Source: Escherichia coli (GTDB lineage: Bacteria > Pseudomonadota > Gammaproteobacteria > Enterobacterales > Enterobacteriaceae). From it: DNA of 475 bases. The translations under genes and the position numbers were made by a program. Location: assembly GCF_003334385.1 (NCBI RefSeq), contig NZ_QOWN01000178.1, one strand, 5' to 3'. Of the stretch, positions 1 through 475 are shown one piece after another (position 1 is the first letter of the stretch; the number at the start of each line of letters is the position of its first letter). The notes beneath the pieces are model-generated. The model did no database searches. It was not told the DNA's origin and saw nothing but the letters and a program-made list of their open reading frames with translations.

Positions 1-403
1 ATTCAGACAGGATACCACGTGTCCCGCCCTACTCATCGAGCTCACAGCATGTGCATTTTTGTGTACGGGGCTGTCACCCTGTATCGCGCGCCTTTCCAGA
101 CGCTTCCACTAACACACACACTGATTCAGGCTCTGGGCTGCTCCCCGTTCGCTCGCCGCTACTGGGGGAATCTCGGTTGATTTCTTTTCCTCGGGGTACT
201 TAGATGTTTCAGTTCCCCCGGTTCGCCTCATTAACCTATGGATTCAGTTAATGATAGTGTGTCGAAACACACTGGGTTTCCCCATTCGGAAATCGCCGGT
301 TATAACGGTTCATATCACCTTACCGACGCTTATCGCAGATTAGCACGTCCTTCATCGCCTCTGACTGCCAGGGCATCCACCGTGTACGCTTAGTCGCTTA
401 ACC
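1..403 (-). rRNA. rrl: 23S ribosomal RNA, 5' portion (about nt 1-403 of the mature rRNA, domain I); the gene continues beyond the window start
   Basis: The reverse complement of 403..1 begins GGTTAAGCGACTAAGCGTACACGGTGGATGCCCTGGCAGTCAGAGGCGATGAAGGACGTGCTAATCTGCGATAAGCGTCGGTAAGGTGATATGAACCG..., the canonical 5' end of Enterobacteriaceae 23S rRNA, and continues through GGGGAAACCCAGTGTGTTTCGACACACTATCATTAACTGAATCCATAGGTTAATGAGGCGAACCGGGGGAACTGAAACATCTAAGTACCCCGAGGAAAAGAAATCAACCGAGATTCCCCCAGTAGCGGCGAGCGAACGGGGAGCAGCCC (conserved domain I helices). The mature 5' end maps to window position 403 on the minus strand. The window ends inside the gene, so the feature is partial. Match is from memory of the reference, not an alignment. 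Confidence 0.95.
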
Positions 404-475
404 TCACAACCCGAAGATGTTTCTTACGATTCATCATCGTGTTGCGAAAATTTGAGAGACTCACGAACAACTTTC
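404..475 (-). other. 16S-23S internal transcribed spacer, 3'-terminal part (pre-23S leader), containing the 5' strand of the 23S processing stem
   Basis: Directly upstream of the mature 23S 5' end in the transcript, the minus strand reads GAAAGTTGTTCGTGAGTCTCTCAAATTTTCGCAACACGATGATGAATCGTAAGAAACATCTTCGGGTTGTGA, then GGTTAAGCG. This matches the spacer that precedes 23S in E. coli-type rrn operons. By established knowledge, the bases just upstream of mature 23S pair with sequence downstream of its 3' end to form the RNase III-cleaved processing stem. The exact cleavage site cannot be fixed from this window alone. Confidence 0.8.

Follow-up and report, generated by a model that had tools for sequence, protein, structure and literature searches.

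The leader-trailer helix of 16S rRNA and its RNase III site are said to go back to Young and Steitz in 1978. The 23S processing stem of Escherichia coli was described by Bram, Young and Steitz (1980, as cited in PMC8708148), and it is needed for assembly of the 50S subunit (Liiv and Remme, 1998, as cited in PMC11404451). Leader-trailer helices around 23S rRNA are near-universal and needed for assembly, according to a survey of 4,464 bacteria (Gemler et al., 2024; PMC11404451). The 16S helix follows the same principle, in which distant complementary flanks make an RNase III substrate that is needed for subunit biogenesis (Warner et al., 2023; PMC10250234), but it flanks 16S, and its precursor extensions are much longer, at 115 and 33 nt where 23S has 7 and 7-8 nt. 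For E. coli, a 2021 review gives the pre-23S left by RNase III as carrying 7 or 3 extra nt at the 5' end and 7 extra nt at the 3' end, the 3-nt-extended cut being reported for pre-23S inside ribosomes (PMC8708148), and nanopore sequencing of native RNA gives a P23S extended by 7 nt at the 5' end and by 8 nt at the 3' end (bioRxiv 10.1101/2019.12.18.880849). The same spacer is also the source of StyR-44, or Salmonella Typhi npcRNA 44, a cloned 109-nt RNA that lies upstream of 23S in all seven operons and gives a growth-phase regulated northern signal in both Salmonella Typhi and E. coli; its discoverers allowed that it may be a metastable intermediate of rRNA maturation (Chinni et al., 2010; PMC2943607).

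Here, we describe the end of one E. coli 16S-23S spacer, contained in a 475-nucleotide stretch of DNA that is referred to throughout, at its full length, as the window. With a probability of roughly 0.93, the leader-trailer (processing) helix of E. coli rrnE 23S rRNA, an RNase III substrate, has its leader strand at window 404-423 (minus strand), and no evidence contradicting this explanation came up in the analysis. The helix has been known biology since 1980, and its placement here is a correct landmark annotation with nothing new in it. Its importance goes little past annotation; the helix itself matters because it is required for 50S biogenesis. Quantitative evidence for a competing local hairpin in Enterobacterales leaders, a candidate co-transcriptional folding device, is a mildly useful by-product.

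The locus and its features

The window has 100% identity to E. coli K-12 rrnE, and each of the 5,426 complete E. coli genomes contains matches to it, the median being 7 per genome. MG1655 has the identical copy between purH and yjaA/metA in an operon ordered 16S, tRNA-Glu, 23S, 5S, which we take to be rrnE. The RNA strand is the minus strand of the window; it opens with the final 72 nt of the 16S-23S spacer and continues into 23S nt 1-403. In RefSeq, the identical E. coli locus has its 23S annotated from window 403, in agreement with model position 1 of the Rfam bacterial LSU family, and the leader segment lies directly 5' of this mature end, inside the rrn operon transcript. Both the sequence and the coordinates quoted in the original prediction are exact: the minus strand reads AAGAAACAUCUUCGGGUUGUGA at 425..404, mature 23S begins at 403 with GGUUAAGCG, and CCGAAG occupies 411-416 on the plus strand.

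Coordinates for the trailer and the upstream spacer were taken from a fetched whole operon sequence (L001), in which the 23S 3' terminus is ...GGCUUAACCUU and the trailer follows as ACAACGCCGAAGGUGUUUUGGCGGAUUGAGAGA. Set beside the described E. coli 23S processing stem, the locus is the same and the molecule is the same, with no difference, the window being the K-12 rrnE copy; the likeness covers a leader 5' of 23S, a trailer 2.9 kb away, cuts at -7/-3 and +7/+8, and continuity with helix 1. Between the rrnB and rrnE copies, two leader bases differ, as does trailer +13, where the G of rrnE (C in rrnB) turns an rrnB U-C mismatch into a U-G pair; the hexamer CUUCGG and its partner are identical.

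Three landmarks are fixed in the window, namely the mature 23S 5' end at 403, the -7 cut at 411/410, and the leader strand of the processing helix at 404-423. The features used below, with negative numbers for leader positions before the mature 5' end, are:

403..1, minus strand: 23S nt 1-403 (Rfam LSU_rRNA_bacteria, 322.8 bits, model position 1 at window 403)
475..404, minus strand: last 72 nt of the 193-nt spacer between tRNA-Glu and 23S
396..403, minus strand: mature 23S 5' end GGUUAAGC (+1..+8), from the Rfam LSU alignment, annotation, cofold and invariant pairs
404..423, minus strand: proximal leader strand of the processing helix, -1..-20 (GAAACAUCUUCGGGUUGUGA), from cofold, pair probabilities, covariation and shuffled-trailer duplexes
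444..459, minus strand: predicted distal leader strand of an extended helix, from cofold, comprising UCUCUCAA (459..452) and UUCGC (448..444)
411..416, minus strand: CUUCGG hexamer, leader -13..-8, which pairs with trailer CCGAAG at +7..+12 (L001 6983-6988)
410..411, minus strand: RNase III cut leaving 7 extra nt on pre-23S, between G-8 (411) and G-7 (410), at its literature position
406..407, minus strand: alternative RNase III cut leaving 3 extra nt, between -4 and -3, at its literature position
411..475, minus strand: 3' two-thirds of Rfam StyR-44 (RF01830), 50.7 bits, E = 1.1e-06, clipped at the window edge
432..445, minus strand: candidate upstream 'pseudo-trailer' GCAACACGAUGAUG, from leader-only MFE and centroid folds, pair probabilities, enrichment in Enterobacterales and compensatory variants among genera

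About 34 positions of the Rfam bacterial LSU model (272-305) are unaligned at window 135/134 on the minus strand, near 23S nt 270, which looks like ordinary helix-length variation. The plus strand carries short ORFs only, antisense to 23S, and none overlaps 404-430; scanning this strand for promoter-like sites found none. One terminator-like stem with a T-run, at window 161-177 on the plus strand and antisense to 23S, is probably a chance match (shuffles expect 0.3 +/- 0.6).

Leader-trailer pairing and RNase III cleavage

Cofolding of leader and trailer gives -62.4 kcal/mol, compared with -23.8 and -15.9 kcal/mol for the pieces alone, energies that take no account of bound proteins or of the entropy lost when a 2.9-kb loop is closed. 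In the cofold, 28 consecutive leader bases (-20 to +8) find their partners in the 23S 3' end and trailer +1..+19. The mature part of this duplex is helix 1, formed by GGUUAAGC as the 5' strand and the 23S 3' end GCUUAACC as its partner, and it runs on without a break into the processing helix, where leader -1..-20 takes trailer +1..+19 as its partner with a single trailer G bulged at +6 (cofold MFE). Each base of CUUCGG pairs with CCGAAG (+7..+12) at a probability of 0.997-1.0. With mature helix 1 excluded, the duplex of the flanks has an energy of -26.0 kcal/mol, against -9.0 +/- 2.5 kcal/mol for shuffled trailers, of which 0 of 2000 reach the real value. Across the taxa compared, leaders pair more strongly with their own trailers than with swapped ones (-23.8 vs -17.2 kcal/mol). 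The complementarity of the segment to the 3' trailer of the same gene is extended and, taken over the whole segment, exceeds chance, which the occurrence of the hexamer alone does not. The original prediction had expected the spacer end to pair with the flank downstream of the same 23S gene, and the trailer of the same operon is indeed strongly complementary to the leader and co-varies with it across taxa. It had assigned this pairing to the bases flanking CUUCGG; that much stands, but the hexamer itself also takes part, in six Watson-Crick pairs with trailer CCGAAG.

Covariation was assessed on the results of a 23S 5'-end scan of one genome per species, which turned up 120 loci, among them 33 matches with the whole 23S and both flanks. 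Leader -24..+8 was joined to trailer -8..+26 in a gap-free alignment of 20 distinct taxa from 16 genera, all gammaproteobacterial (Escherichia, Enterobacter, Citrobacter, Pantoea, Dickeya, Lonsdalea, Yersinia, Providencia, Photorhabdus, Xenorhabdus, two insect endosymbionts, Pasteurella, Vibrio, Grimontia and Pseudoalteromonas). Placed on these taxa, the E. coli structure has standard pairs in 97.9% of 520 cells, against 89.4% in shuffles, and both sides have changed in 10 of the 26 pairs, a count that 0 of 500 shuffles attain; since the 20 taxa are related, this shuffle control overstates significance. Relatedness has no bearing on the slid-register control, in which pairing drops to 35-49% when the 3' partner is moved by 1-3 columns, or on the several distinct compensatory pair types. 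Within the hexamer, four of the six pairs co-vary, and the pair -10:+9 is C-G in 8 taxa, U-A in 5, G-C in 3 and A-U in 2. The E. coli combination CUUCGG/CCGAAG is replaced by GUUUGG/CCAAAC in Pseudoalteromonas, by CUUGAG/CUCAAG in Pasteurella and by UUCAGG/CCUGAG in Gullanella; the Pantoea version, CUGUGG/CCAGAG, retains one G-G mismatch.

Beyond the proximal strand, the cofold predicts trailer GGCGG and UUGAGAGA as the partners of UCUCUCAA and UUCGC. The box GAGUCUCUCAA (window 462..452, minus strand) is almost unchanged in nearly all Enterobacterales leaders, at a varying distance to 23S, and its predicted partner in the cofold, GAGAGA, recurs in Enterobacterales trailers; this pairing would form a distal extension of the leader-trailer helix.

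The same sequences gave several side observations. From the 5' to the 3' anchor, 23S measures 3,086 nt in Providencia vermicola (L005), about 3,014 nt in Pasteurella atlantica (L018-L020) and about 3,008 nt in Grimontia hollisae (L070-L072), against 2,904 nt in E. coli, which suggests intervening sequences inside the 23S of these three species. In Pantoea sp. 1.19 (L064), the 32-nt pattern of the 23S 5' end occurs twice on one scaffold, at minus 9870-9901 and 10089-10120, 219 nt apart, which means that the 23S 5' end is partly duplicated or that the assembly is in error. The trailer alone (L001 6981-6999) can form a CGCCGAA/UUUGGCG hairpin that would also sequester CCGAAG and that is compensated in some taxa (CACC/GGUG, and CACCAGAA/UUCUGGUG in Pantoea); it was dropped as a conserved partner structure, many trailers lacking the 3' arm (those of Providencia, Yersinia, Lonsdalea, Pasteurella and the two insect endosymbionts).

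Set on the predicted duplex, the published -7/-3 and +7/+8 ends bracket the pairs G-8:C+7 and G-9:C+8. The 3' cut of pre-23S is also reported to range over 7-9 nt. RNase III cuts lie on either side of G-C pairs and leave 2-nt 3' overhangs (PMC6212723), and the bracketing of two G-C pairs by the -7 and +7/+8 cuts fits a staggered cut of this kind. The exact overhang length is ambiguous because of the bulged G at +6, and the reported 3' cuts vary (+7, +8). As had been anticipated, precursor 5' ends fall inside 404-430, both the -7 and the -3 end being published (PMC8708148; bioRxiv 10.1101/2019.12.18.880849). The published -7 cut is the exact 3' edge of CUUCGG, at window 411/410. A maturation landmark had been placed in this segment by the original prediction and does lie there; its exact point is that edge of the hexamer and not a loop.

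The course of events that these results and the literature best support is as follows. Once 23S (2,904 nt) and the trailer have been transcribed, leader -20..-1 and 23S +1..+8 would close on the 23S 3' end and trailer +1..+19 in a helix of about 28 consecutive base pairs and a single bulged G, and CUUCGG (-13..-8) would come to lie in the middle of the duplex, facing trailer CCGAAG (+7..+12). RNase III would recognise the duplex and make a staggered cut across the last two pairs, both G-C, on the 3' side of the hexamer, between -8 and -7 on the leader and after +7/+8 on the trailer. This would release a pre-23S with 7 extra 5' nt, to be trimmed later by other nucleases, and also an upstream spacer fragment with the 3' end ...CAUCUUCGG-3', the fragment catalogued as StyR-44. 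Independent of cleavage, the helix would keep the ends of 23S together for 50S assembly, as the literature has it. Before the trailer is made, the leader strand would probably be parked in a local hairpin with window 445..432, which may later give the strand over to the trailer through strand exchange.

A possible competing local hairpin

The real trailer is made roughly one minute after the leader strand. In the leader alone, GCAACACGAUGAUG (window 445..432) pairs with CAUCUUCGGGUUGU (window 419..406), and the resulting hairpin excludes the leader-trailer helix. Both the MFE and the centroid of the leader-only fold consist of this single imperfect hairpin, at -19.1 kcal/mol (z = -2.15), with the pairings GCAAC/GUUGU, CGA/UCG and GAUG/CAUC, and four of the six hexamer bases pair upstream in it at a probability of 0.95-1.0. 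The upstream strand, UCGCAAC-A-CGAxG, resembles the real trailer, UUACAAC-GC-CGAAG. Each of the 31 Enterobacterales leaders examined takes the form of one long hairpin, and in 29 of them four or more hexamer bases are paired upstream; matched changes in the two arms include CGAAG/CUUCG, CCGCAG/CUGUGG, UCACAG/CUGUGG and CCGAGA/UUUCGG. Among the 27 unique Enterobacterales leaders, 14.0 of the 20 leader-strand bases are paired upstream on average, against 8.6 in shuffles, at an MFE of -17.6 against -9.0, and p <= 0.05 is reached in 23 of the 27.

These findings bear on whether the strand has a second, selected state, in which the GCAACACGAUGAUG/CAUCUUCGGGUUGU hairpin would protect or time it until the trailer exists. 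Such a state would complement the processing-helix explanation, and we consider it possible, at somewhat less than even odds. The whole-strand enrichment, the co-varying words of the arms and the leader-only fold speak for it, as does the Rfam StyR-44 consensus, which includes the inner part of the hairpin; transient pre-23S structures have moreover been argued for (Liiv and Remme, 2004, as cited in PMC5449589). A text search of the literature for a description of the transient structure found none. Against it, the leaders are phylogenetically related, and the upstream-pairing signal is confined to Enterobacterales sensu stricto, outside which 7.1 bases are paired against 6.3 in shuffles. The pair probability specific to the hexamer, over 81 leaders, is barely above that of shuffles (0.66 vs 0.56; 0.65 vs 0.61 in E. 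coli), which is too near chance for local pairing of the hexamer as such to be claimed. A swap test, in which the 11-nt strand was given its own or foreign upstream regions, yielded a mean z of -0.24 and was not significant (Wilcoxon p = 0.10). Given the weak hexamer and swap tests, it is the whole-strand Enterobacterales test, and no other, that carries the claim for a local hairpin. The hairpin is also much weaker than the leader-trailer helix and for that reason cannot be the final state.

A clade-specific, transient co-transcriptional hairpin that is displaced once the far more stable leader-trailer helix forms is plausible, with a role that would be as a holding structure for the strand. 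The fuller proposal, that the Enterobacterales pseudo-trailer sequesters the leader strand including CUUCGG during 23S transcription until the real trailer displaces it by strand exchange, is more doubtful, and we regard it as rather unlikely. If true, the pseudo-trailer would time or chaperone RNase III cleavage and the joining of the 23S ends in a clade-specific way, and its hairpin would explain the metastability of the excised StyR-44 fragment; the idea may even then not be new, given the general idea of transient pre-23S structures (Liiv and Remme, 2004).

StyR-44, the CUUCGG word and the spacer repeats

In the identical locus, the full StyR-44 match spans L001 3957-4065 at 124.9 bits over model positions 1-107, above the gathering score of 54. 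Window 475..411 corresponds to the 3' part of the family, and its score of 50.7 bits stays below 54 because the window edge removes the 5' third. The StyR-44 span is the spacer fragment from the spacer boxA region to the RNase III cut, and the last base of the model is the second G of CUUCGG (window 411), directly 5' of that cut. In the Rfam structure, CUUCG is the 3' arm of a local hairpin and the interaction with the trailer is ignored.

It is very unlikely that the segment is mainly the 3' terminal hairpin of StyR-44 as an independent regulatory small RNA and not a by-product of processing. The strong Rfam match would fit a small RNA of this kind, as would the growth-phase regulated northern signal in Salmonella Typhi and E. 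coli (PMC2943607) and the presence of StyR-44 in sRNA surveys of Pectobacterium and Yersinia ruckeri; these later mentions are listings in expression surveys, growth-rate regulation is expected of any product of an rrn operon, and the literature examined reports no StyR-44 target or phenotype. The covariation of the segment is with the trailer. The fact that StyR-44 ends at the RNase III site speaks for the reading as a mere metastable maturation intermediate, which the discoverers themselves allowed (PMC2943607).

CUUCGG is also the classic word of C(UUCG)G hairpins of the UNCG family, with UUCG closed by C-G at window 416..411, and the original prediction had noted the resemblance while judging any such hairpin weak. 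The three flanking pairs it proposed can be drawn (C416-G411, U417-G410, A418-U409), and its judgement was borne out to the point that the hairpin is not used at all: the 3-pair structure has an energy of +0.7 kcal/mol with the ViennaRNA tetraloop bonus included, and the probability of its closing pair in the leader ensemble is 0.0. The 27-nt segment is no more stably folded than its shuffles (-2.7 kcal/mol, z = 0.08), and the hexamer occurs at chance frequency, with 1 match against 0.29 expected per window and at least one in 54 of 200 dinucleotide shuffles. As a loop the word is poorly conserved, being kept in 8 of the 20 aligned taxa and 35 of 81 unique leaders, and its changes are compensated in the trailer and not within the loop-closing pair. 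The 20-taxon alignment gives no covariation for the putative tetraloop stem, because the 3' side of that stem never varies.

That CUUCGG serves as a local tetraloop hairpin, a structural or nucleation element near the mature 5' end, is ruled out for practical purposes by energy, occupancy, conservation and chance frequency, even though, 130 nt upstream in this spacer, the same 11-nt word, CAUCUUCGGGU, does form a true tetraloop hairpin. The likeness to C(UUCG)G hairpins is that of a six-base word, and it is a coincidence; here the word comes without a stable stem, predicted occupancy or loop conservation, and its bases are Watson-Crick paired in the long leader-trailer duplex. A word that looks like a textbook tetraloop can be just one strand of an ordinary duplex.

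The upstream hairpin is a 16-bp inverted repeat, AAUAUCUCAAAACUCA / UGAUGUUUGAGAUAUU, at L001 3913-3952, about 120-160 nt upstream of 23S and outside the window. It is long, has a genuine C(UUCG)G tetraloop cap and lies directly upstream of UUGCUCUUUAAAAAUC, and the two together are presumably the boxB-boxA antitermination element of the spacer; the start of StyR-44 falls inside the boxA-like word. A 22-mer at L001 3916-3937 recurs with 77% identity at 4046-4067 (window 430..409), and the repeat includes CAUCUUCGGGU as an exact 11-mer, of which a rough estimate expects about 0.004 exact repeats in 193 nt. Likewise, GGUUUGUGAG just after tRNA-Glu (L001 3886-3895) resembles GGGUUGUGAG at the 23S junction (L001 4064-4073). 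The direct repeats of the spacer may reflect an old internal duplication, and of the two copies of the word CAUCUUCGGGU, one forms a true tetraloop whereas the other serves as a duplex strand.
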